Below are positions 637 to 26,637 of a DNA stretch of 64,000 nucleotides, piece by piece. A program made the translations under genes and the position numbers. A model generated the notes under the pieces. That model was not told where the DNA came from. It did no database searches and was given only the letters and a program-made list of their open reading frames with translations. The stretch's first letter is position 1; every line of letters starts with the position of its first letter. This DNA comes from Candidatus Woesearchaeota archaeon. GTDB taxonomy: Archaea; Nanobdellota; Nanobdellia; Pacearchaeales; GW2011-AR1. Location of the stretch: NCBI GenBank assembly GCA_964372205.1, contig CAYJQB010000001.1:13180-77179 (forward strand), written 5' to 3'.

Positions 637-3234
637 TTAGTTCCCGCCTTTACTTTCAATAACACCCATTTGTAACTTATGCATTCTTCTTAAGAATTGC
701 AGTTTTTCTTCCATTCTTATAAGGTCTGCATGGCTTTGTAATATCAAACTCAATCCAAATGGAGAAACAAGAGGAGTTCTTACTTTCTTCACTTTAATCT
801 TTCCTTTCTCAATAGCATCAAGAATCGCCTTAGCCCTGTGTATGTCCATAACATCCTCAAGAACCTCTCTTCTAGCCTCTTGAAGTATAGGAAACTCGTT
901 ACTTATTTTTTGAACCGCAGCAAGTAAAAAGTGGGAATGCATCTGTTGTTTTCCAACAGTCTTGCTCCTCCCCTTATAATTTCTCAGTATCATTAAGCTT
1001 CTTGAAGCGCAATGCCTAAACCTTCTTCTTAAAACATCAGTTTTTTCAATAGCCTCCTTCAATATTAATTCAATATCTTTTGCTTTAACCCATTTCAAAA
1101 TCTTCTCTTCGTCAAGTTTCTCCCCAGCAATATAAAATCCATTATCGTTTATTCCAATTTCTATATCTCTATGCTTTAAACGAGCGGCCGCAAACCCGTA
1201 AACTCTAGAAAGCGCATCATTCACGCGTCGGCCGTACATACTATGAAATAACAGGTATTCTTTATCACTCTTGAACTTTTCAACTATAAGTTCTTTATCA
1301 GTAGGTATTTCACTAAATCTCGCCTGTTCCGAAAGATAGTCACACATCTGTTCGGCTTCAACATCATCGCAATAAAGATACTCCTTGATAAATTCAATCG
1401 TTTTTTCTTTGTTTTTTATCTTTTCCTTTACAAGCCCCCTGAATTTAGCAATATCTATAGCAACATCATAACTAAGAGGCAACATCTCCGAAAACCAAGA
1501 AGGAATGGTTGGACTTTTAGACACGTCCGCAATAACATACGCTTTCATCCCCTGGCTTCTAACAAACTGATACTTTTGCCCTCCCAAAACAAAAACATCC
1601 CCTCTTTTCATTTTTTCAAGAAAAGCTTCGTCTATCTTCCCAACAATCTGCCCCCTCTTTTCCACTGGAGCACTTATAACTACAGAAATGAACCCCTCTT
1701 CAGGGATTGTTCCTATATTAGTCATATAAATTATTCTCGCAGTCTTTCCTCTCTTTCCAATCTCTCCAGTACCTACATCATACCATATTTTTGCATAAAC
1801 ATTTCTGTGTTCTAAAGCATAATCACCCGCAAGATAAGAAACAACTGCAAAAAAATCTTCCTTACTCAAGGTAGCATAACAATAACTTTTTCTAATAACT
1901 TTTAACATGTCTTCCGCTTTCCAAATTTTTGAAATAGCCATCCCATATATCTGCTGAGCAAGAACATCTAAAGCGTTTTTAGGAATATCCACCTTGTCTA
2001 TTTTGTTTTCTATCATACTCTTCATCATTACTCCACACTCAATAAGGTCGTCCCTATCCGTCACAATAAACCTTCCTTTAGGATTACTATGTAACTTATG
2101 TCCCGCTCTTCCAATTCTCTGCAACGCCCGGGCAACACCCTTAGGAGATCTAAGCAAAACTACAAGGTCCACATTCCCGATATCAATTCCCAGTTCAAGA
2201 CTTGTACTACTCACAACAACTTTCAATTCCCCTTTTCTAAGCTTGTCTTCAATCTCAAATCTTTTTTCTTTGCTCATTGAACTATGATGCGCACCAATAA
2301 GTTCATTATATTTACCTGGAAAGTGCAAATCTAAATAATGAATTATTCTCTCAGTGGCAGCCCTCGTGTTAGTAAATATCAAAGTAGTCTTATGAGTCTG
2401 AATAAGCTCGTCTAAAATTCTATACATTTCTTTCTGACTCTCCACACTGTCTGCTTCAATCAAGTCTCTAGCAGGAGAGATTAGACCAATATCTACTTTT
2501 TTCATTAGTTTTACCTTCGCAATCAAGCAGTCTCTTCCATCCCCCACTAAAAATTTTGCAATCTCTTCCAGAGGAGCAATAGTAGCACTCAACCCAATAC
2601 GCACAGGTTCAATAAGACTAAAATCACAAAGTCTTTCCAGAGTCAAGCTCATATACACCCCTCTTTTATTGGCCATAGCGTGAATTTCATCAACAATGAT
2701 AAATTCCAAGGCTGTAAGATTCTCAACAAATTTAGTTGTAGTAAGAACAATGGCAAGACTCTCAGGAGTTGTAACATAAATATGAGGCACCTTTCTGGTG
2801 TGCTTTGCTCTTTCAGAAGCAGTAGTATCCCCGGTTCTAACACCAACTCTAATCTCTTGCATTTCAATTCCTTTTTCTTTAGCAAGGGCGTATATTTCTT
2901 TAAGAGGAGCTTCAAGGTTTACAAAAATATCATTGCTCAGAGCCTTCAACGGAGAAGTGTAAACAGCATATATTTTATCCTCAAGTTCTTTTTTAAGAGC
3001 AAGTCCAACAAGATAATTAATGATTCCAAGAAAAGCAGTAAGGGTTTTTGTCCCTCCGGTCGGTGCACTTATCAGTATATTTTTTCTATCGTATATTGTT
3101 TTTACCCCGTACAACTGTGTTAAAGAAAAGTCTTCAAATTTCCTAAAAAACCATTCAGCAACAATCGGATGCAATATCTTTCTTACTTCAGCAGCAGCAT
3201 AGGGCTCTTCCATAAAGGCAATTTCCCGAGCCAT
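637..3234 (-). CDS. lhr: Lhr-core superfamily-2 (SF2) ATP-dependent DNA helicase (865 aa)
   Basis: Walker A is APTGGTKT, motif II is DEIH and motif III is SAT. The size fits Lhr-core, and a co-oriented MPE gene lies directly downstream. Confidence 0.85.
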   Translation of the reverse strand: MAREIAFMEEPYAAAEVRKILHPIVAEWFFRKFEDFSLTQLYGVKTIYDRKNILISAPTGGTKTLTAFLGIINYLVGLALKKELEDKIYAVYTSPLKALSNDIFVNLEAPLKEIYALAKEKGIEMQEIRVGVRTGDTTASERAKHTRKVPHIYVTTPESLAIVLTTTKFVENLTALEFIIVDEIHAMANKRGVYMSLTLERLCDFSLIEPVRIGLSATIAPLEEIAKFLVGDGRDCLIAKVKLMKKVDIGLISPARDLIEADSVESQKEMYRILDELIQTHKTTLIFTNTRAATERIIHYLDLHFPGKYNELIGAHHSSMSKEKRFEIEDKLRKGELKVVVSSTSLELGIDIGNVDLVVLLRSPKGVARALQRIGRAGHKLHSNPKGRFIVTDRDDLIECGVMMKSMIENKIDKVDIPKNALDVLAQQIYGMAISKIWKAEDMLKVIRKSYCYATLSKEDFFAVVSYLAGDYALEHRNVYAKIWYDVGTGEIGKRGKTARIIYMTNIGTIPEEGFISVVISAPVEKRGQIVGKIDEAFLEKMKRGDVFVLGGQKYQFVRSQGMKAYVIADVSKSPTIPSWFSEMLPLSYDVAIDIAKFRGLVKEKIKNKEKTIEFIKEYLYCDDVEAEQMCDYLSEQARFSEIPTDKELIVEKFKSDKEYLLFHSMYGRRVNDALSRVYGFAAARLKHRDIEIGINDNGFYIAGEKLDEEKILKWVKAKDIELILKEAIEKTDVLRRRFRHCASRSLMILRNYKGRSKTVGKQQMHSHFLLAAVQKISNEFPILQEARREVLEDVMDIHRAKAILDAIEKGKIKVKKVRTPLVSPFGLSLILQSHADLIRMEEKLQFLRRMHKLQMGVIESKGGN

Positions 3235-4817: not shown

Positions 4818-5543
4818 ATGCAGGAAGACAAAATAAAGGAATCTTTCGCTAACGTAAGGCAAGACATAGATTATCTTTACTACGAGATTCAAGAATTAAA
4901 ACGAACTATAGAAGAAATAAAAGAACTTCAGACAGAAATACTCAAGAAACAGACAGACAACAGACAATCAACAGACACTTCGACACATAATTTGCCTTTA
5001 GAAGACGTAAAAAGCCCAAATTTAACAATCTCCAGTGGAAATGAAGGGGTTCCAACAGACAGACAGACAGACCAACAGACAGACAGACAACCCCCCCATT
5101 TCCTATGGAATAAGAGAGAAAATCTTCAAAATCTATCTTCAAACAACTCAGAAATACACATAAAATCATCAGAAAAAGACAAAATAATGGAAAAATTACC
5201 AATTTTAGCCCAGCTGCACAGGGCCTCAGAATTCCTAGAATCATTAGACGAACTCAAGAAGGAAGTTCGCGTTAAGTTTAAAAAATTAACCTCTCAAGAA
5301 ATGCAAGTGTTTAGTAAAATATATGAATTAGAAGAACAAGGATTAATTGTAGATTATACTCTTCTTGCAGAAAAGCTTTCTTTAACAGAAAGTTCAATAA
5401 GAGATTATGTTCTTAGGTTGATACGAAAAGGAATTCCCGTCGAGAAACACAAAGAAAACAACAAAAGAATAACTCTTTTTATATCAAGAGAATTAAGAAA
5501 AATAGCGCCTTTAGAAACTATTCATCAACTAAGATCCATCTAG
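4818..5543 (+). CDS. Coiled-coil / C-terminal winged-helix DNA-binding protein, paralog A
   Basis: The N-terminus is heptad-rich (ELKRTIEEIKELQTEILKK). The C-terminal HTH (LSLTESSIRDYVLRLIRKG) is alignable with the 5848-6558 protein. The gene contains in-frame (AGAC)n repeats and a C7 tract. Confidence 0.5.
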   Translation: MQEDKIKESFANVRQDIDYLYYEIQELKRTIEEIKELQTEILKKQTDNRQSTDTSTHNLPLEDVKSPNLTISSGNEGVPTDRQTDQQTDRQPPHFLWNKRENLQNLSSNNSEIHIKSSEKDKIMEKLPILAQLHRASEFLESLDELKKEVRVKFKKLTSQEMQVFSKIYELEEQGLIVDYTLLAEKLSLTESSIRDYVLRLIRKGIPVEKHKENNKRITLFISRELRKIAPLETIHQLRSI

Positions 5544-5585: not shown

Positions 5586-5900
5586 ATGTCAAATTTAAGC
5601 TTTTTAGAGCTTTAAATGCTCAAATTTAAGCTTTTTACTTTTTCCCACCTCAGAAAAATTGCTCACCAGAGGCAATTTTCCCTCATTTTTCCACGAACTT
5701 TAATTTTTTGCACAACTGATCATACTCACTTTTCAACAATTCTTAAAAAACAAAGAAAATCACTCACTTTTACATCAAAATTGAATCCTTTACAATACCC
5801 AAAGGCACTCACTTTTCCACTTTTTTTGAACATTTTTATATCTCTCCTCACTTTTTTTGTTTTTTAGCTGATTTTTTATCTCCCCCAACTCTCACTTTTG
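5586..5900. repeat. Periodic iteron-like direct repeats between the two convergent wHTH paralogs
   Basis: CAAATTTAAGCTTTTTA occurs twice (5590 and 5621). The motif (A/C)CTCACTTTT occurs five times (about 5717, 5763, 5808, 5847 and 5891) with a 39-46 bp period. Confidence 0.6.
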
Positions 5901-6558
5901 CATATTTTAGCAGTTTTTCCCTGATTTCTTCTGGCACATAGACTCTTTTTTTACCATTAGGTTCGGTTAACTCATACACCAAACCCTCACTTTTCTGTTT
6001 TATTGAGTTTATTTGGCCTCTAATTGTAGATCTCTCTTTTCCTAAAAGTCTAGCTAAGTCCTCATAACTAAGTTTCATCTCTTCTTCGGCATTCAAAAGG
6101 GTAAAAACTATCAATCTTTCATTAGCCGACAATTGTTGCAAAATTTGATGAAAATTGGCTGTTTGGACAGCTGTTTGAACAGGTTCTTGAACAGGATAAA
6201 CAGCTGTTTGTTTATCAACACCTGTTTGTTTTTTAAACACCTGTTTGCCTTCCTTTGCAAAATTAATCAAAGAAACAGCCTCTCTGATACTTTCAACCTC
6301 ATCTTGAATCGACGATATTTCCACTCTTAACTCATTTAACACATCAAACAGCTGTTTATCTTTGTTATCTAGGTGTTTAATCCACTTTCCAACTTTGTCA
6401 AAATCATCCTTAACTTCTTGAAAACCCCTTTTAGTGTTTTCTTCCAGTTTTTCTACCTTCTTTTTTCCAGAAAACCAAAACATACTATTTTTTAAACACC
6501 CATCTTTATAAATATTACGCTCAATAAGCCCGGAAAACAGCATTTCAATAAATCCCAA
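5848..6558 (-). CDS. Coiled-coil / C-terminal winged-helix DNA-binding protein, paralog B
   Basis: Same architecture as 4818-5543; the HTH reads LSYEDLARLLGKERSTIRGQI. The gene contains AAACAGCTGTTT palindromes that encode QTAVQT repeats. Confidence 0.5.
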   Translation of the reverse strand: MGFIEMLFSGLIERNIYKDGCLKNSMFWFSGKKKVEKLEENTKRGFQEVKDDFDKVGKWIKHLDNKDKQLFDVLNELRVEISSIQDEVESIREAVSLINFAKEGKQVFKKQTGVDKQTAVYPVQEPVQTAVQTANFHQILQQLSANERLIVFTLLNAEEEMKLSYEDLARLLGKERSTIRGQINSIKQKSEGLVYELTEPNGKKRVYVPEEIREKLLKYAKVRVGGDKKSAKKQKK

Positions 6559-7100: not shown

Positions 7101-7451
7101 ATGGCAGAAGAATTTACAAAAAAACAACAAAAAGAAGTAGAGAAAGAAGTAGAAAAACAAGTAGAAAAACGACTGAAAATCTACGAAAAACTGCTCAAAG
7201 AAGGACATGTTTTCAGATCAGAATTCAAAAAAGAAGCATCCACGGCCATAATAGCAGCATTCGGTTTTCTGATAGCTCTTTCATGGAAAGACTTTGTCAC
7301 AAAAATTGCTGAGAATCTTCAAGGCACAGGCATTATGGTTCGGTACCCATACTTAGCAGAGCTGTATGTTGCAGTAATTATTACTGCATTCTCAGTAATA
7401 GGTATAATGCTCATTTCCAGGTGGGCAAAAAAAGAGGATAAAAACAAATGA
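7101..7451 (+). CDS. Membrane protein with a lysine/glutamate-rich N-terminal repeat (116 aa)
   Basis: From the ORF track. It has KEVEKEVEKQVEK repeats and two transmembrane segments, and is a paralog of 7448-7747. Confidence 0.5.
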   Translation: MAEEFTKKQQKEVEKEVEKQVEKRLKIYEKLLKEGHVFRSEFKKEASTAIIAAFGFLIALSWKDFVTKIAENLQGTGIMVRYPYLAELYVAVIITAFSVIGIMLISRWAKKEDKNK

Positions 7452-7789: not shown

Positions 7790-7951
7790 ATGGCTACAAT
7801 ATCATTAACAATCTCAGCAATACTCGCAATAATTCTAGGATTAGTAATACTTATCTGGCCAAAGCTTCTAAGATGGGCAGTAGGACTTTATCTTTTAATC
7901 TTCGGAATACTTCAACTCTTAGGGAATTACGTAGATTTTTCCCCAATATAA
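7790..7951 (+). CDS. Small membrane protein (53 aa), DUF3096-like, not in the ORF track
   Basis: MATISLTISAILAIILGLVILIWPKLLRWAVGLYLLIFGILQLLGNYVDFSPI forms two transmembrane helices; the resemblance to the DUF3096 pattern is from memory. Confidence 0.4.
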   Translation: MATISLTISAILAIILGLVILIWPKLLRWAVGLYLLIFGILQLLGNYVDFSPI

Positions 7952-7974
7952 TCTAGAAGGAGGTAAAAGAAAAG

Positions 7975-8145
7975 ATGCAAAGTAAATGGTATGGTTGGCT
8001 GGTTCTTTTGATAGGAATTCTATTAATAATCCCAATGTTTGGAGTCGCAGCATTAGGCACGTTAACTTCAGGATTTATTGGTTGGTTCATTCCAATAATA
8101 ATCATCCTCCTAGGAATTCTAGGTATAACGAAAGCTAAAAAGTAA
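7975..8145 (+). CDS. Small membrane protein (56 aa), not in the ORF track
   Basis: An AAGGAGGTAAAAG Shine-Dalgarno site precedes it. MQSKWYGWLVLLIGILLIIPMFGVAALGTLTSGFIGWFIPIIIILLGILGITKAKK is similar in style to the 6829-6972 protein. Confidence 0.45.
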   Translation: MQSKWYGWLVLLIGILLIIPMFGVAALGTLTSGFIGWFIPIIIILLGILGITKAKK

Positions 8146-8159
8146 TGCTAAAACCTTCT

Positions 8160-8215
8160 GCTTTCGCCTAAAACTTCCAACATAACTAATAAGTTCGGAT
8201 TAAGATATTAACGAT
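8160..8215 (+). promoter_or_regulatory. Repeated promoter/leader element, copy 1
   Basis: The sequence CTTTCGCCTAAAACTTCCAACATAACTAATAAGTTCGGATTAAGATA is near-identical to copy 2 and overlaps copy 3. It is followed by an AT-rich TATA-like tract. Confidence 0.5.
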
Positions 8216-8247
8216 AAAATTATAAACCTCCAATTACTAAATTAGTC

Positions 8248-8397
8248 GTGAAAAACGTTAAAGCATTCATAGGAATTCTATTAATCTTATTGATAGTTTT
8301 AGTTTTCTTTGTACCTCTGGGTTCAGGAATGTTTCCTTATATTTTAGTAGGAGTCATACTTCTAGGTCTTATTTGGAAAGTAGCTAAATGGTTTTAA
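8248..8397 (+). CDS. Small membrane protein (49 aa, GTG start), not in the ORF track
   Basis: VKNVKAFIGILLILLIVLVFFVPLGSGMFPYILVGVILLGLIWKVAKWF follows copy 1 of the repeated promoter element. The start codon is uncertain. Confidence 0.35.
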   Translation: MKNVKAFIGILLILLIVLVFFVPLGSGMFPYILVGVILLGLIWKVAKWF

Positions 8398-8466
8398 TCA
8401 ATTTAAAGGATTTATGTGTAAATACTTCGCACAAGATACATTAACTGAACTCAAGAAAAATTCGGG

Positions 8467-8724
8467 TTAAGCAGCAGAGTATTTTCTATCGTAATTTCTA
8501 TCAGCTAGACCTTGTCCAAGACCAAAAGCAAGACTTTCGAAAACACCGCGAGGCCTAGGAATTTGACCTTTCAATTCTCTCTCTTCTTCAACTACCGCAT
8601 TTATACTTGCATCAGACATGAAGAAAATATCTCCATCGTGTCTATGCTCTATATTTGCTTCTCTTCTCCCATTTTGATAAGCTTGTCCTAATCTATCAAC
8701 CCTACATTTTAATCCTTCAAACAT
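8467..8724 (-). CDS. Hypothetical protein (85 aa)
   Basis: ORF only. Confidence 0.35.
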   Translation of the reverse strand: MFEGLKCRVDRLGQAYQNGRREANIEHRHDGDIFFMSDASINAVVEEERELKGQIPRPRGVFESLAFGLGQGLADRNYDRKYSAA

Positions 8725-8804
8725 CTTTGAGTTTAACTTATTTTATTATTAAATATTTGTTGACTGGAAAGTATATTTTTTAGTCCACTCTTGTGCTAAA
8801 ACTT

Positions 8805-8870
8805 CCTGCTTTCGCCTAAAACCTCCAACATAACATATAAGTTCGGGTTAAGATAAATTTAAAAAGTTGA
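8805..8870 (+). promoter_or_regulatory. Repeated promoter/leader element, copy 2
   Basis: CTTTCGCCTAAAACCTCCAACATAACATATAAGTTCGGGTTAAGATAAATTTAAAAAG has a TTTAAA TATA-like box about 30 nt before the ATG at 8887. Confidence 0.5.
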
Positions 8871-8886
8871 ATTATTAAGAAACAAG

Positions 8887-9234
8887 ATGGATAATGGAAG
8901 AATCTTTAGAGCAGCAGGTTGTTTTGCCTTAGCAGCAATATCTTTCAAGACTAGCCAAGTTCTTTATAACGATTTCCTCAATATGCTTGCAGCACATAAT
9001 CCAGACACATCCTTAGTTCATCGAAGAGAAAGCCTTCCTCCACACTATATAGAAAAAATGAGTAATCGAGACTCAGACATTAAGGTTGAAATGGCATTAC
9101 GTGACGTGTTCGGAAGTATTGGAACTCTTGCAGCTTCAAGTTACTTAACTGCCCTCGGTGTTAATTTAGCAACCAGTAGGAGAAGATATGCCCCCGAGAG
9201 AGAACACCCAAGCCAAGGTTTAGAAAATTCTTAA
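8887..9234 (+). CDS. Hypothetical protein (115 aa)
   Basis: ORF downstream of promoter copy 2. Confidence 0.4.
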   Translation: MDNGRIFRAAGCFALAAISFKTSQVLYNDFLNMLAAHNPDTSLVHRRESLPPHYIEKMSNRDSDIKVEMALRDVFGSIGTLAASSYLTALGVNLATSRRRYAPEREHPSQGLENS

Positions 9235-9244
9235 TTTACACGCA

Positions 9245-9300
9245 AAAACCTCCAACATCATAGATAAGTTCGGATTAAGATAAATTTAAAAAGATAAGGT
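9245..9300 (+). promoter_or_regulatory. Repeated promoter/leader element, copy 3
   Basis: AAAACCTCCAACATCATAGATAAGTTCGGATTAAGATAAATTTAAAAAG lies 14 nt before the ATG at 9314. Confidence 0.5.
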
Positions 9301-9313
9301 ATTAAGAAAAAAC

Positions 9314-9736
9314 ATGTCACATCAGATAGGTTCAACGGACAGAGTAACCTTGGAAGGAAGAACTTTCGATGTTGAATTGAGACCCCACCACCGAGGTGAA
9401 ACCTATTCAAAGTGTGAAGTCGACTGCCCGGAGGGATGGCAAATTCCGATTTATTCTCTCTTACAAGGCATGAGAAATAATCCAGAATATAAAGAAAGAT
9501 TTGGTTTACTTATGATCTCCGAGTTTGTCCAAAATCCTGACGAAATCTCAAGACAGAAAGGTCTTGCCGCTTGGTTCTTTGCGAATTCGGCCGGAGCCGG
9601 CCTGAGTTGCTTTAGGGATCCTCAGAACAAAAGTCCTCTGCTCGGGGTACGTTACGCCCGTGAAATTTCTCAAGGACAACCAAATCCCGACAAACCAATA
9701 GATCCAGATGGAACTGGTGATTATCAAACACATTAA
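9314..9736 (+). CDS. Hypothetical protein (140 aa), noticeably more GC-rich than its surroundings
   Basis: ORF downstream of promoter copy 3. GC-rich stretches such as GCGAATTCGGCCGGAGCCGGCCTGAG stand out from the AT-rich neighbourhood. Confidence 0.45.
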   Translation: MSHQIGSTDRVTLEGRTFDVELRPHHRGETYSKCEVDCPEGWQIPIYSLLQGMRNNPEYKERFGLLMISEFVQNPDEISRQKGLAAWFFANSAGAGLSCFRDPQNKSPLLGVRYAREISQGQPNPDKPIDPDGTGDYQTH

Positions 9737-9747
9737 ATCTATAAAAT

Positions 9748-9984
9748 ATGACAAGAAGAAAACCCATAAGAAATCTTTTAGCAATATCTGCAATTGCCTT
9801 AGGAGTTTCTCAACTAGATAACTTCAGACCTGAACTTCACAAAGCATACCAAGAAACGTCTGCAGTAATTAGAGGAGAAAAAACATCTTTCAAAAAAGAG
9901 GACTTCAGTTCGAGAGAAATTCTTGCAGGCACACTTTACACATCAAGTTTATTAGGAGCAATTTATCTAATTACAAGAAAATGA
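9748..9984 (+). CDS. Hypothetical membrane-anchored protein (78 aa)
   Basis: ORF with an N-terminal hydrophobic segment and a C-terminal transmembrane segment. Confidence 0.35.
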   Translation: MTRRKPIRNLLAISAIALGVSQLDNFRPELHKAYQETSAVIRGEKTSFKKEDFSSREILAGTLYTSSLLGAIYLITRK

Positions 9985-10340
9985 GTAACTTAAAAAAAAT
10001 AATCGGACTAGGAACGGCATATACTGCATCATTTGCATTTGGATTTGCAAAAGGAATAAGTGCAGAGCAAGGATTTCCAATAACTGATACTCATTTAGAC
10101 GACACTCTAATGGCAGGGGTTCCATTTCTAAGCGCAATTATCGGAGCTAAAACTTTTCCAACACATTCAGACACCGAACGCGAAATGGAAAGATATCATC
10201 AAAGACCAACAGGAATGGAATACGCCCTCATTTCTGGAGAAAGAGCAGTTGGCGCAGGACTTGGCTTCGTCGGTTCTGTAATATCTCTCGGGTTAGGTTA
10301 TACTTTAGGATACACGGGCTCACATATTTTAAATCGTTAG
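9981..10340 (+). CDS. Hypothetical glycine-rich membrane protein (119 aa)
   Basis: Overlaps the previous ORF (ATGA). It has glycine-zipper-like segments. Confidence 0.4.
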   Translation: MSNLKKIIGLGTAYTASFAFGFAKGISAEQGFPITDTHLDDTLMAGVPFLSAIIGAKTFPTHSDTEREMERYHQRPTGMEYALISGERAVGAGLGFVGSVISLGLGYTLGYTGSHILNR

Positions 10341-11203: not shown

Positions 11204-12811
11204 CTATTTCCTAACAAAATCCCTAAGGACTTTCAAAACTTCTTCTCTTTTTGAAGGAAGGAATGTAATGCTTCCTGCATTTTTATGCCCTCCACCGTCG
11301 GCAAAAGAGTCTTTCACTTTTTTGTTAATCTCTTTTATAAGTTCATGAACTGAAAAGTCTGCCTTGTCTGTAGCACGGATTGTTATAGCAGTGTTCATTA
11401 CTCCGACAGTAACAACCGCATCAAGTTTTTTATCTTTTTGAATAAAATCGTGCACAAGTCCAACCGCTCTTCCAGGTTTAGGAAAGAATCCAAATCCAGG
11501 AAACGTTTTGTCTATGTCTATTAATTGAAGAGTAACCCTTCCAAGCTTTTCAATTTGTGCCCCAGATTTTGCGATTTCAAGTCCCTTCTTATCTAGCTCA
11601 TTTATATATGGTGCCATAAGTTCGACAAGCTTCTTTTGTTGAGCTCTTGGTTCTCCAAAAATTATTTCTATATATTCTCTAGCTTCCATGAATTTCAATT
11701 TGGCAGAAACAAAATCTATCACCGTCGCTATATTTCCCAAAAGTTCTTTTGAATATCCCATCTCCTTTGCAAGTTTCAAATACTGATTTACAGCATCAGA
11801 GTTCAGTAAATCAATTCTGTCTGCAATTCCAGCCATCGCTGCTATCTGTTCAATATTTTCTACTTCGTAAATCATTCTAGCAAGTTCTGCGCACAACATT
11901 CCTGCAGAGAATTTTTGTCCATCTTCTCCAACTAGAAAAGGATTGACGTGTACAAGCACCTCACCACTAATAACATCCTCATCAAAATAGTGATGGTCTA
12001 TAACTATGAAATCCATCCCATGAACTTTTCCCTGTTTTATTCCCATTAAGTCTTCAGAGCTAGATCCGTTGTCAGCAATAACAACCAGGGGCATTTTATT
12101 TGAGAATTTTGCAACGTTCCTTAAAGAATTTGCAGTATCTCTTATAGAATCATCTATTTCATAGAAAGGTGCAGAGCAAGGAGCTCTTGTGTAAAACTCC
12201 CAAGCGCTTTTTCCTCCTCCGTGTTGCTGTTCTACTAATGGAATAATCGCTTTTTCAAGAGAATATCCTGCAGAATATCCATCGGCGTCGTTGTGATGTC
12301 TTACAATTATCGGGCGATTTTGCATTACTGCTAGTTTAATTTCCATTGCAGCCTTCATCATACTAGGTCTTAACTTATCTAATATTTCGCTGTCTATCAT
12401 AAATTCAACATCTCTTGCCTTAGATCTTTCACGCAATATATCTTGCATTTTTTCAGACAAAATTTCTTTTTCTTCAGAAGACAATTTTTTCATAGAAATT
12501 ATCTCGCCTTCCAAAGCATTGTTATATTCATTGATTTTAACCTTTGCAGAAATATAATCTTCAGCATTCACTTCAGGATAGGATCTCTCCCCCGGCTTGC
12601 TTGCAAATCCTTTGAGCATGAAGCTTGCAGTTCCATCACTGACAGAGAATAATGTAGGTCCAGAAGTCTGACTAACACTGTCAGTAACACACTCAAGCAG
12701 TAATACTTTTCCGATAGAGTTCCTGTCTATTTTGTCAAGAGTGCTCGATTTTGCTTCCTGGCCAGGTCTAGGCCTGAAATTTTGATTTTTCTTTTTTTGA
12801 TTCATTTTCAT
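11204..12811 (-). CDS. RecJ-like DHH/DHHA1 phosphoesterase (archaeal GAN/RecJ/Cdc45-like nuclease) with an N-terminal OB-like extension
   Basis: DHH family motifs RHHNDADG and VIDHHYF are present, and the C-terminal GGGHKNAGS is the DHHA1 motif. A non-catalytic N-terminal domain of about 150 aa precedes them. Confidence 0.8.
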   Translation of the reverse strand: MKMNQKKKNQNFRPRPGQEAKSSTLDKIDRNSIGKVLLLECVTDSVSQTSGPTLFSVSDGTASFMLKGFASKPGERSYPEVNAEDYISAKVKINEYNNALEGEIISMKKLSSEEKEILSEKMQDILRERSKARDVEFMIDSEILDKLRPSMMKAAMEIKLAVMQNRPIIVRHHNDADGYSAGYSLEKAIIPLVEQQHGGGKSAWEFYTRAPCSAPFYEIDDSIRDTANSLRNVAKFSNKMPLVVIADNGSSSEDLMGIKQGKVHGMDFIVIDHHYFDEDVISGEVLVHVNPFLVGEDGQKFSAGMLCAELARMIYEVENIEQIAAMAGIADRIDLLNSDAVNQYLKLAKEMGYSKELLGNIATVIDFVSAKLKFMEAREYIEIIFGEPRAQQKKLVELMAPYINELDKKGLEIAKSGAQIEKLGRVTLQLIDIDKTFPGFGFFPKPGRAVGLVHDFIQKDKKLDAVVTVGVMNTAITIRATDKADFSVHELIKEINKKVKDSFADGGGHKNAGSITFLPSKREEVLKVLRDFVRK

Positions 12812-15291: not shown

Positions 15292-16107
15292 ATGCAGGTC
15301 TTAGAAAAGCTAAAATCAGAGTTGAAGTTAAGGGGTTTCTCTCCCATGACTGTTCGCAACTATGCTTTTTTTGTGGACAAATTTATGAAATTCTCTAATA
15401 AAGACCCTACAGAATTAACAGAAGACGACGCAAAACTTTATCTCTCAGAGTTGTTCGAAACAAAATCAAAGAATACTATTATGCTTGCTGCAGCCGCGTT
15501 AAAATTCTTTTTTGGAGAAATACTAAAAAAGGATTTTTCAGGAGTAAAAGTTCCAAAAAAAGATAAGAAGCTTCCAGAAGTTCTTACAAGGGATGAGGTG
15601 AAAAAACTAATTGATTCAACAGATACAAAAAAATCGAAATTGATAATCTCTCTTTTATATTCCTCTGGGCTTAGAGTCTCAGAAATTGTAAGTCTGAAAC
15701 CTAGCGATATAGATTTTGAAGAAAATGTCGGATGGGTAAGAAAAGGAAAAGGATCAAAGGATAGAGTGTTTGTTCTAGCAGATTCATTATCAAAAGAAAT
15801 AACGGATTATATGAAAAAAAGAGCTGACAACAAATATGTCTTCTCAAAAAATCAACCACTCACTACAAGAAATATTCAAAAAATAGTTAAAAATGTTAGA
15901 GAGAAAGCAGGGATTTCAAAAAAGATTACTCCTCACACACTAAGACACAGCTTCGCAACTCATCTTTTGGAGGGCGGGACGGATATTAGGCTGATTCAGA
16001 CTCTTCTAGGACACTCTTCACTAAACACCACTCAGATATACACGCACGTGTCATCTGACCAATTGAAGAAGGTTGCGAATCCTTACGATTCTCTCACGAC
16101 TAAATAA
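15292..16107 (+). CDS. xerA: Tyrosine site-specific recombinase XerA
   Basis: The C-terminal catalytic region HTLRHSFATHLLEGGTDIRLIQTLLGHSSLNTTQIYTHV holds the R...HxxR...Y residues. The N-terminal core-binding domain is present. Confidence 0.85.
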   Translation: MQVLEKLKSELKLRGFSPMTVRNYAFFVDKFMKFSNKDPTELTEDDAKLYLSELFETKSKNTIMLAAAALKFFFGEILKKDFSGVKVPKKDKKLPEVLTRDEVKKLIDSTDTKKSKLIISLLYSSGLRVSEIVSLKPSDIDFEENVGWVRKGKGSKDRVFVLADSLSKEITDYMKKRADNKYVFSKNQPLTTRNIQKIVKNVREKAGISKKITPHTLRHSFATHLLEGGTDIRLIQTLLGHSSLNTTQIYTHVSSDQLKKVANPYDSLTTK

Positions 16108-17352: not shown

Positions 17353-17436
17353 TGCGGGGAGAAGGATTCGAACCTTCGCAGGCACTAAGCCAACACGGCC
17401 TTAACGTGTCCCGTTTGACCGCTCCGGCATCCCCAC
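17353..17436 (-). tRNA. tRNA-Leu, class II; the anticodon loop reads TTAAGGC (anticodon AAG as read)
   Basis: By manual folding of the reverse-complement, the acceptor stem is GUGGGGA/UCCCCGC with discriminator A. The anticodon stem ACACG/CGTGT is perfect. It has a long variable arm and a GGTTCGAATCC T-arm. Confidence 0.7.
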
Positions 17437-26122: not shown

Positions 26123-26237
26123 AGAAGACAGCATCTGTGCTTCGCCTCTGTTCGGAGACTAACACACCAGACGTGGCAGGCTTAACTTCTGTGTTCGGAA
26201 AGGGAACAGGTGTTTCCCAACCACTATGGCCGTCTTC
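26123..26237 (-). rRNA. rrf: 5S ribosomal RNA
   Basis: The reverse-complement contains GGCCATAGTGGTTGGGAAACACCTGTTCCCTTTCCGAACACAGAAGTTAAGCC, the universal 5S loop-C/helix-III signature. The terminal helix is GAAGACGGC/GCTGTCTTC. Confidence 0.7.
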
Positions 26238-26315
26238 AGAAATATCCTTTATTTAGAGTATAAAAACCTTTCCAATCAATAACTTTAAAATAAGCTAATC
26301 TCCTATCTTTGGTAA

Positions 26316-26399
26316 GCGGGGATGCCGGAGTGGTCAAACGGGACGGACTCAAGATCCGTTAGCTTAGTGCTTACGAAGGTTCGAATCCTTCTCCCCGCA
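26316..26399 (+). tRNA. tRNA-Leu(CAA), class II
   Basis: By manual folding, the acceptor stem is GCGGGGA/TCCCCGC with discriminator A. The anticodon stem ACGGA/TCCGT flanks loop CTCAAGA. It has a long variable arm. Confidence 0.8.
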
Positions 26400-26400
26400 T

Positions 26401-26475
26401 GCTCCCGTAGCTCAGCCTGGATAGAGCATTGGGGTCCTAACCCAAGGGTCACAGGTTCAAATCCTGTCGGGAGCG
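26401..26475 (+). tRNA. tRNA-Arg(CCT)
   Basis: Acceptor stem GCTCCCG/CGGGAGC. Anticodon stem TTGGG/CCCAA flanks loop GTCCTAA. T-loop TTCAAAT. It starts 1 nt after tRNA-Leu. Confidence 0.75.
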
Positions 26476-26521
26476 TTCTAAAAGCAAATCTTTAAAACCC
26501 ACTTCTCAATAGAATAAACAT

Positions 26522-26593
26522 GCGTGGGTAGTTCAGTGGTTAGAATCTCGGCCTTCCAAGTCGATGACCCGGGTTCGAATCCCGGCCCGCGCA
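26522..26593 (+). tRNA. tRNA-Gly(TCC)
   Basis: Acceptor stem GCGTGGG/CCCGCGC with discriminator A. Anticodon stem TCGGC/GTCGA flanks loop CTTCCAA. T-loop TTCGAAT. Confidence 0.75.
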
Positions 26594-26637
26594 TGCTTAA
26601 TTAAACTTTTAAACCCTCGCAGTTTAGTGTTTTTATC

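Follow-up and report, generated by a model that had tools for sequence, protein, structure and literature searches.

A repeated intergenic element separates a set of small genes in the 64,000-nucleotide (nt) stretch of archaeal DNA analysed here (hereafter the window), the closest named relative of which is a Candidatus Pacearchaeota genome of the DPANN archaea (PFDB01000002). The window belongs to a metagenome-assembled contig (ENA ERZ13692936 NODE_56). Direct reading and a repeat search located three copies of the element on the plus strand, which we refer to as S modules: S1 at 8147–8203, S2 at 8795–8851 and S3 at 9235–9278. Each module is followed by the start codon of a different open reading frame (ORF), namely GTG 8248 (49 amino acids, aa) behind S1, ATG 8887 (115 aa) behind S2 and ATG 9314 (140 aa) behind S3. 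A preliminary description of the same DNA had placed three copies close to these positions, upstream of three unrelated small ORFs of differing base composition. Both points hold: the 49-, 115- and 140-aa ORFs have no mutual similarity, and their GC content is 0.30, 0.40 and 0.44, respectively, compared with 0.355 for the window. The S copies would be conserved modules placed between the genes of a small hypervariable array, which extends from the DUF5654/DUF3096 genes to a RecJ-like gene. The reading we favour, to which we assign a probability of roughly one half, is that the modules are protein-bound DNA units that supply both the promoters and the junctions at which gene cassettes are replaced.

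The module consists of about 57 nt of lineage-specific DNA, in which three blocks can be distinguished: B1 (GCTAAAAC.TT), B2 (AAAACTTCCAACAT) and arm a' (ATAAGTTCGGNTTAA). In S1, B1 reads GCTAAAACCTT, B2 reads AAAACTTCCAACAT and arm a' reads AAGTTCGGATTAA (8191–8203). S2 features the same blocks, with a' at 8839–8851. S3 is a hybrid, which starts right after a stop codon with a sequence (TTTACACGCAAAAAC) resembling LF, the left flank of a palindromic variant described below, and continues with B2 and a' (9266–9278). All S modules are in direct orientation and have a single recognisable arm. S1 and S2 are identical at 55/61 positions, in line with the 90% given by the preliminary description. 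S2 and S3 share 62/72 positions, counted as far as the ATG, and a 38-nt core (AAAAC..GATA) is 87–89% identical (33–34/38) in every pair of S1, S2 and S3. The copies are mosaic, as the distal part (GCTAAAAC..GCTTTCGCC) is common to S1 and S2 and the proximal part (GATAAATTTAAAAAG) is common to S2 and S3. A chance origin of the three copies is excluded. The 18-mer TAAGTTCGGRTTAAGATA occurs three times in the window with at most 3 mismatches, compared with 0.24 occurrences in shuffled sequences. In addition, a profile hidden Markov model of the element matches only S1, S2 and S3 in the window (E 1e-13 to 1e-18), the next best match having an E value of 1.7. Across genomes, 11 distinct full copies define the conserved blocks B1 (GCtAAAAC.TT), B2 (AaAACTTcCAACAT) and a' (ATAAGTTCGGnTTAA), the last of which is nearly invariant.

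A promoter follows each of the three modules on the plus strand. The TATA-like octamer is ATTATAAA in cassette 1 (8219–8226; promoter 8219–8247) and TTTAAAAA in both cassette 2 (8858–8865; promoter 8858–8886) and cassette 3 (9285–9292; promoter 9285–9313). In all three, the end of the octamer is separated from the start codon by exactly 21 nt. The preliminary description is right in that each copy ends in an archaeal TATA box, set at a constant distance from one of three unrelated ORFs; the distance itself, given there as about 25–30 nt, is amended. The S1 box (TTATAAA, 8220–8226) lies 11 nt farther from the conserved block than its counterparts in S2 and S3, an extended a'-to-TATA spacing that recurs in the L031b copy of a related locus (loci of related genomes are designated by L numbers). 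When TATA-like octamers upstream of 66 non-overlapping window ORFs of at least 100 aa were tallied by distance, 12 were found at 21 nt, 5 at 20 nt and 3 at 22 nt, against a background of about 0.1 per position. The layout in which TATA and ATG are 21 nt apart is the generic promoter layout of this genome, and the lineage-specific part is the ~57 nt upstream. The concern that the element might be nothing other than a generic promoter consensus hence applies to the proximal TATA-21-ATG part, which occurs genome-wide, and not to the distal ~57 nt, which are confined to the locus. All 15 copies that precede a same-strand gene, in the window and in relatives, feature a TATA octamer followed by a start codon after 20–23 nt; the spacing is exactly 21 nt in most of them, even where the intervening bases are unrelated. 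By analogy with known archaeal promoter architecture, this layout would imply leaderless mRNAs and, because of that, the lack of a transcribed leader. The conserved part lies upstream of the TATA box, and the leader proposed in the preliminary description has been abandoned.

The 21-nt TATA signature is useful for correcting start codons; for instance, in L028 a start at position 2029 is preferable to the called one at 2040. Another conserved promoter type (GTTAAAAAGAG..AAAA.AAG..TTTTT-ATG) is found at L001 6393–6443 and 5258–5295 and at L028 1942–1975. It is common to three unrelated minus-strand genes and stands back to back with S modules. A scan for bacterial sigma-70 promoters and terminators gave counts at or under the shuffle expectation.

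The distribution of the element was determined by an exact scan for ATAAGTTCGGNTTAAGATA in 185,579 GTDB species genomes (one per species) and in JGI metagenomes. The GTDB scan returned six stretches, only one of which is a true copy, the Pacearchaeota locus L001, carrying two exact copies and a third, variant copy. The metagenome scan returned the same organism again and nothing further. In the L001 genome, the element is found at the syntenic locus only. Flanking genes are 75–85% identical at the nucleotide level between L001 and the window, and modules are 88–94% identical. The two loci share a scaffold in which DUF3096, an S module, a cassette, the palindromic variant (L-form), an inverted cassette, an S module and a cassette follow one another. 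The window ORFs enclosed by the shared flanks, of 56, 49, 85 (inverted), 115 and 140 aa, all differ from those of L001; the latter carries ORFs of 84, 108 (inverted), 149, 59 and 116 (both inverted) and 130 aa, none of which is homologous to those of the window. In L028, modules precede three genes: a homologue of the 115-aa gene (80% aa identity), a 66-aa gene and a conserved 78-aa gene. More distant loci were fetched by means of the RecJ-like protein and then searched with the profile. Diverged modules were identified in L030, L031, L032, L038, L039 and L040, the RecJ-like proteins of which are 65–84% identical to that of the window, and profile searches found no modules in L035–L037, where the locus or the whole flank is rearranged. 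The preliminary description had proposed checking whether cargo ORFs vary between strains behind a conserved element, and this is what is observed: relatives keep the element and the flanking genes and carry different cargo, so that genes turn over on a constant scaffold.

Comparison with third codon positions provides an estimate of the constraint acting on the modules. S1 is identical to its positional orthologue in L001 at 56/61 positions and the L-form at 56/63, compared with 70% identity at the third codon positions of three flanking genes (binomial P 5e-5 and 4e-4, respectively). Diverged modules also persist in loci where the RecJ-like protein is 65–73% identical. Taken with the distribution of the element, the excess of module identity over the third-codon-position identity of the flanking genes shows that the modules are old, locus-specific and under purifying selection. 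This bears on the idea that the repeat is a neutral by-product of a recent tandem promoter duplication, with no function beyond that of a generic promoter. The 90% identity of S1 and S2 fits that idea, as does the finding that the two copies of L032 are more alike than copies from different genomes. Recent duplication had also been put forward in the preliminary description; it is contradicted by the copies being positional orthologues across genomes with 65–86% identical RecJ-like proteins. The conservation above third-codon-position identity is likewise at odds with neutrality, and the genes behind the copies are unrelated, so promoter and gene were not duplicated jointly. We regard neutral duplication as very improbable.

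The island is inherited as a mosaic. Between L028 and L001, the RecJ-like gene shows 99.2% identity across 1,659 nt (L028 5925–7583, L001 3863–2205), the adjacent genes of 78 and 119 aa only 85.6% (L028 2518–3142, L001 4815–4191), and the cassettes differ. This discrepancy indicates that the island has been exchanged by recombination inside what is otherwise one species-level population. Homology between loci ends at module edges or inside modules, as in the hybrid S3 (LF joined to B2) and in L028, where LF is truncated. Five assemblies of the window's own population are 99.96–100% identical over the parts of the array they cover, with one mismatch in one of them, so that no polymorphism was seen.

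Aside from the S modules, the window features the L-form, a palindromic variant located at 8412–8470 on the plus strand. It is composed of LF (8412–8440, ..CTTCGCACAAGATACA), arm a TTAACTGAACT (8441–8451), an 8-nt spacer (8452–8459) and arm a' ATTCGGGTTAA (8460–8470), the end of LF (..TACTTCGCACAAGATACA) standing directly before arm a. These two 11-mers form an imperfect inverted repeat. The right arm is at the same time block a' of the S modules (ATAAGTTCGGNTTAA), which is the block conserved best in every one of them. Symmetry between the arms amounts to 7/11 in the window, where the spacer has 8 nt, and to 9/11 in L040, where it has 7 nt. A single occurrence of the arm-pair pattern was found in 64 kb, compared with 0.235 in shuffles. 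The L-form is found at the same place in L001 (6825–6766, minus strand), L040 (7356–7413) and L030 (4234–4183, minus strand), and is thus conserved in four genomes, together with its left flank. LF and the left arm form an identical run of 37 nt in L001 and L040, although the RecJ-like genes of these loci are about 74% identical at the nucleotide level and the DUF3096 genes barely align. The arrays of L031, L032, L038 and L039 have no intact palindrome. In these loci, it is the other strand that carries LF and arm a, joined to the left part of an S module and standing behind a gene whose orientation is the reverse of that of the S modules.

Both edges of the modules are closely fitted to genes. 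Every module ends sharply at TTAA, the TTA of which is the stop codon of four unrelated inverted genes: the 85-aa ORF of the window, the 108-aa ORF of L001 and the 66-aa and 87-aa ORFs of L040. On the other side, LF or B1 begins 0–15 nt past the stop codon of a preceding gene in the same orientation in at least 10 cases.

These data can be accommodated as follows. The ~57-nt specific part would function in the form of double-stranded DNA, most probably by offering a platform to which a sequence-specific protein binds. The ordinary leaderless archaeal promoter directly after it would place the genes behind the modules under one common control. The modules are the sole sequence common to neighbouring cassettes and to the genomes compared, and for this reason would be where recombination replaces, inserts or inverts genes; the scaffold would consequently stay constant and the cargo differ from genome to genome. 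We infer that the modules bind protein and co-regulate the genes behind them, and that recombination uses the modules. Homologous exchange between modules seems somewhat more likely than site-specific exchange. Some breakpoints, those of the hybrid S3 (LF joined to B2) and of L028 with its truncated LF, are inside the flank and point to homologous or microhomology-mediated events.

Several observations weigh against the idea of protein-bound modules that serve as promoters and junctions. The best-conserved variant, the L-form, is located between two convergent 3' ends and not at a promoter. About 10 of some 25 copies found across genomes (~40%) have no promoter or same-strand gene behind them. 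These include gene-free tandem modules (L039 near 6700–6620, L040 7651–7808), copies that lead directly into an inverted gene at its 3' end (L032b, L038b and, in L028, one degenerate copy) and all L-forms. A purely regulatory role does not explain such copies; the promoter reading of the preliminary description, which fits the copies located before genes, leaves both the promoter-less copies and the palindromic variant at 8412–8470 unaccounted for. The distance from a' to TATA ranges from 6 to 17 nt among copies, which is loose for an activator acting from one face of the helix. At ~60 nt, a module is a short substrate for homologous exchange. Finally, the neighbouring helix-turn-helix (HTH) genes, which encode the candidate binders, are linked to the modules by synteny alone.

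These HTH genes are found at 4818–5543 (plus strand, 241 aa) and 5848–6543 (minus strand, 231 aa), and their products have weak C-terminal HTH matches in Pfam (E 0.005–0.03). Homologues adjoin DUF5654 in every related locus that reaches that far; the two genes are syntenic with the array and may, tentatively, be considered to encode candidate binders of the modules. The four-base repeat (ACAG)n, in 8.8 copies, is found at 5052–5089 inside the 241-aa gene, and TGTC-rich repeats are found in the homologous genes of relatives (L031 12866–12991, L032 16563–16731). A four-base repeat in a coding region could cause phase variation of the frameshift type. Short tandem repeats also occur within coding sequence at 6196–6247 and 7118–7179: one has a 19-nt unit, present in 2.8 copies within the 231-aa HTH gene, and another has a 12/24-nt unit that encodes a KQVEKE-type repeat at the N-terminus of the DUF5654 protein.

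It might be argued that the element is purely cis-regulatory, an operator or upstream activating sequence of a local regulon, in which case the variable cargo would reflect ordinary island dynamics and the promoter-less copies would be decaying relics. Archaeal activators such as Ptr2 and GvpE bind just upstream of the transcription factor B recognition element (BRE). In 15 copies, the module is located directly upstream of the BRE/TATA region and always faces the gene. Purifying selection on the module and the two HTH genes syntenic with the array also suit an operator. Relics should decay, yet the promoter-less L-form is the best-conserved variant. Moreover, both edges of the modules are, in several genomes, the points at which variable DNA is joined, and the spacing between a' and TATA varies. 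An operator with no other role is, in our view, unlikely.

The inverted arms raise another possibility, the main rival of the favoured reading although held only tentatively, namely that the array is a dif-like recombination scaffold. Mobile elements known as IMEX integrate at dif via the host Xer recombinase. The L-form would be a XerA-type site, with inverted 11-nt arms, a 7–8-nt spacer and a conserved flank, and the S modules would be sites with a single arm, or pseudo sites, left where cassettes meet. There, XerA or another recombinase would insert, excise and invert promoter-bearing cassettes, in the manner of IMEX or of the dif modules of Acinetobacter. In archaea, dif sites consist of two imperfect 11-bp inverted arms and a 6-bp spacer (PMC2958812; PMC8371274). 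They are unique, intergenic and highly conserved (>80% among related genomes) and have conserved flanks; dif is found near xerA in Sulfolobales, and in S. solfataricus two copies share one location (PMC2958812). The L-form appears to fit most of these published points: its arm pair is present a single time in 64 kb, L001, L030 and L040 have it at the corresponding locus, and LF plus the left arm are identical over 37 nt at ~74% nucleotide identity of the RecJ-like gene. The identity of its right arm with the most conserved block of the S modules, the sharp TTAA ends used as stop codons by four unrelated inverted genes and the gene-free tandem modules fit as well. The opposite-strand LF and arm a joined to the left part of an S module in L031, L032, L038 and L039 are the expected product of an inversion between an S module and an L-form. 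A gene for a XerA tyrosine recombinase (271 aa; 15292–16107, plus strand; NCBIfam NF040815 recomb_XerA_Arch, 282.7 bits compared with a cut-off of 220) is located 7 kb from the array. Furthermore, cargo that includes toxin-antitoxin genes resembles the cargo of dif modules and integrons (PMC6449649).

Other features fit such a scaffold poorly. S modules are one-armed, and tyrosine recombinases need two arms. The spacer is 7–8 nt rather than the 6 nt reported for archaeal dif, and arm symmetry is just 7/11 in the window and 9/11 in L040. In the absence of an intact palindrome from the arrays of L031, L032, L038 and L039, an essential chromosomal dif would have to sit elsewhere in those genomes. 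The xerA gene, which adjoins rps9 in all relatives, stays beside it even in the module-free L035–L037. Some breakpoints are inside the flank and not in the spacer, and matches to the arm-pair pattern in viral contigs are coincidental. A bolder and similarly tentative reading is that archaea possess a gene-capture platform not described before, for which the modules serve as recombination sites. It would be made of a dif-like palindrome and its one-armed derivatives, at which the housekeeping XerA or a partner would insert, excise and invert single-gene cassettes carrying their own leaderless promoter. If true, the platform would be a functional analogue of integrons and dif modules, operating on double-stranded Xer-type sites in DPANN archaea. 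The xerA product is a candidate enzyme under site-specific exchange only.

Pattern scans of viral contigs gave chance matches only for the module and no match for two LF patterns. On these scans, a viral or plasmid origin was rejected: the arm-pair pattern was found in two phage contig families, in one of them inside a 93-aa coding gene and in the other sharing only the bases that the pattern requires. Likewise, no inverted-repeat pairs bracket modules or cassettes and no transposase is present in the array, as would be found with an insertion sequence or a miniature inverted-repeat transposable element. The modules lack tRNA similarity and the nearest tRNA gene is at 17353, so that a tRNA fragment or att site was also discarded.

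The position of LF or B1 within 0–15 nt after a preceding stop codon, in the orientation of that gene in at least 10 cases, suits an element that acts at the RNA level, whether as a small RNA, an upstream ORF, a 5' leader common to several genes or, for the gene before it, a 3' terminator or stability motif. A T5 run is also present in the reverse complement of LF in L001 and L040. We nevertheless consider action at the RNA level improbable. The conserved part is upstream of the TATA box and hence outside the downstream mRNA, and both S2 and the copy designated LB follow a divergent promoter and not a gene end. Single-strand folding of all three copies on both strands revealed no excess stability over shuffles (z -1.4 to +2.1), and RNAalifold found 0 pairs and no consensus structure in eight sequences comprising LF and arm. 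At gathering thresholds, Rfam matches in the whole window are limited to 5S rRNA and tRNAs, and a search of 7900–9500 at E up to 10 gave sub-threshold noise.

Three specific RNA or coding candidates were discarded. An upstream ORF starting from an ATG or GTG in B1 has no conserved start codon, and its frame differs between copies. LF has one open frame in which it could encode a C-terminus, but all three codon positions are conserved and no start codon is. A C/D-box small RNA would require a C box, which is missing, although CUGA is present.

Unrelated small ORFs, toxin-antitoxin genes among them, separated by a conserved repeat are also found in chromosomal integrons, and integrons exist in Nanoarchaeota (PMC9668308). 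The proximity of the repeats to the replication-associated RecJ-like gene might instead suggest the origin-recognition boxes of a replication origin. Neither an integron, with attC sites and IntI, nor an origin is at all probable here. The nearby recombinase is XerA, which scores 230 against the integron-integrase model TIGR02249, under the cut-off of 265, and matches only positions 1–181 of 315. The modules have no attC hairpin folding and, like the promoters, are located on the 5' side of genes. As to the origin, no Orc1/Cdc6 domain was found in the 20 large window ORFs scanned against Pfam, and the repeats are all direct and interspersed with real genes.

Gene order around the array was read from the window ORFs. 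To the left are the Lhr helicase gene (637–3234), the two HTH genes, the DUF5654 gene, a 99-aa paralogue and the DUF3096 gene, the last three in that order between the HTH genes and the array. The DUF3096 gene (7790–7951, plus strand, 53 aa; Pfam PF11295, E 2.7e-8) forms the left flank, and its product is 92% identical to that of L001 and 73–77% identical to those of L031, L032 and L035. Between DUF3096 and S1 there is an ORF for a 56-aa membrane protein with two helices (7975–8145, plus strand), with GGAGG 10 nt upstream. This ORF is found in this genome only; it is missing from L001, where the module starts 4 nt after DUF3096, and no homologue was found in the other related loci compared.

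No significant Pfam, NCBIfam or PDB-sequence family was found for the cargo proteins, and none of ten cargo proteins matched PADLOC defence-system models. The first cargo ORF (8248–8397, plus strand) encodes the hydrophobic 49-aa product, for which there was neither a Pfam or PADLOC match nor a homologue in related loci. The inverted 85-aa ORF (8467–8724, minus strand) takes as its stop codon the TTA (8467–8469) in the terminal TTAA of arm a'. The second cargo protein (115 aa; 8887–9234, plus strand) has hydrophobic segments at both termini; among related loci, its only homologue is that of L028, where it is also located behind a module.

The third cargo gene (9314–9736, plus strand) encodes a soluble 140-aa protein with a predicted C-type-lectin-like fold. 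It belongs to an unnamed family of proteins of ~120–150 aa, known from 59 cluster representatives and featuring the motifs GW.IPTY.LLQ.LRN and LGVRF.R. The AlphaFold model has a predicted local distance difference test (pLDDT) score of 91.3. The best PDB matches are weak but consistently C-type-lectin-like, and include the C-terminal domain of Bd2740 (8oks_A, E 5.9e-3), snake-venom lectins, Ly49 and Mtd. The variable proteins of diversity-generating retroelements are also among these nearest, weakly matching folds. A homologue with 54% identity is found on an unrelated short contig, L042, and is preceded by blocks resembling B1, B2 and a', a TATA box and a gap of ~20 nt. Since the homologue is again preceded by a module, module and gene can stay associated over large divergence.

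The cassettes of relatives include genes of the toxin-antitoxin type, namely ParE/DUF7557 (behind L031b), an AbrB-like gene and a nucleotidyltransferase pair, cargo that is typical of variable islands. The L031b module is located directly upstream of the DUF7557/ParE pair (L031 8493–9067, minus strand).

To the right, cargo 3 is followed, with no intervening module, by the genes of 78 and 119 aa (9748–10340, plus strand), the products of which are 82–87% identical in L001, L028 and L029. The 78-aa gene has its own module in L028, as has its distant homologue in L030 (75 aa, 33% identity). Farther to the right are two minus-strand ORFs, the RecJ-like DHH protein gene (11204–12811), a zinc-finger gene, FKBP, a gene for an M64-like protein, xerA and ribosomal protein genes. 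Elsewhere in the window, a 5S rRNA gene on the minus strand stands beside a tight cluster of tRNA-Leu(CAA), tRNA-Arg(CCT) and tRNA-Gly(UCC) genes (26123–26594), with no 16S or 23S rRNA gene nearby. A long glycosylation and cell-envelope cluster (29400–58500) encodes GT4 and GT9 glycosyltransferases, epimerases, dehydratases, flippase-like proteins, PMT-like mannosyltransferases and STT3 (AglB), and includes a pyruvate kinase gene mid-way.

DPANN archaea have tiny genomes and depend on hosts, and the way in which they gain and test genes is poorly understood. In the array, a constant scaffold of ~60-nt modules carries genes that are replaced even between near-identical strains, and the cargo includes small membrane proteins, a protein with a predicted lectin fold and toxin-antitoxin pairs. 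Searches of the full-text literature turned up no report of an array of this kind in DPANN archaea, which is a weak negative. Should the modules prove to be recombination sites, the array would be a new kind of archaeal gene-capture array, possibly driven by a housekeeping Xer recombinase. If they are operators only, they would delimit, in an uncultured lineage, a compact regulon of accessory genes that lends itself to testing. In both cases, they provide a sequence handle with which the cassette pool can be catalogued by profile search and population metagenomics. The link to a dif-like palindrome was unexpected, and turns gene capture in DPANN archaea into a concrete and testable hypothesis.

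Four known systems invite comparison. In archaeal leaderless BRE/TATA promoters, as here, TATA is found at a fixed distance from a leaderless gene, a conserved block stands immediately upstream and one block serves several genes. Sites for upstream-binding factors are exemplified by those of Ptr2, GvpE and EarA. In contrast to these promoters, the block described here is ~57 nt long, belongs to one locus, precedes unrelated and rapidly replaced genes, and also occurs with no promoter.

Conserved 5' regions before divergent genes are also a hallmark of the mycoplasma vsp, vlp and vsa loci for variable surface proteins. The array shares with them a small, host-dependent genome, a gene cluster with conserved 5' control cassettes, a strain-variable gene set and a nearby tyrosine recombinase. 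The cargo, however, is not made of mutual paralogues and does not obviously consist of surface lipoproteins, and no phase-variable inversion was seen among the five assemblies of the window's own population.

Sedentary chromosomal integrons (those with the Vibrio VCR and archaeal integrons; PMC9668308) likewise feature a conserved repeat, of ~60–130 nt, between unrelated small ORFs mostly of unassigned function. The array differs from them in having neither IntI nor an attC-type fold, and the module is placed 5' of a gene and before its promoter, whereas attC is located 3' of promoter-less cassettes. Xer/dif sites and Xer modules (PMC2958812; PMC6449649, PMC13141974; IMEX) resemble the L-form in their inverted 11-nt arms, short spacer, conserved flank, presence of one per locus, strong conservation and nearby xerA, and dif modules are similarly small, with one or two genes, toxin-antitoxin pairs included, bounded by related sites. 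On the other hand, the L-form spacer is 7–8 nt instead of 6 nt, the S modules have one arm each and an intact palindrome is missing from some relatives; in addition, the sites of the array are all direct rather than alternating, and the cassettes are not each bounded by complete two-armed sites. Given that IntI, attC folding and two-armed sites were looked for and are missing, the array is not a member of the integron or dif-module families; nor is it an RNA element or a generic promoter consensus. By analogy, the dif modules of Acinetobacter would be the nearest functional counterpart, as small modules bounded by Xer sites (PMC6449649, PMC13141974). Overall, the element may be likened to an archaeal promoter with an upstream binding platform, and the array appears to behave like a chromosomal cassette array.

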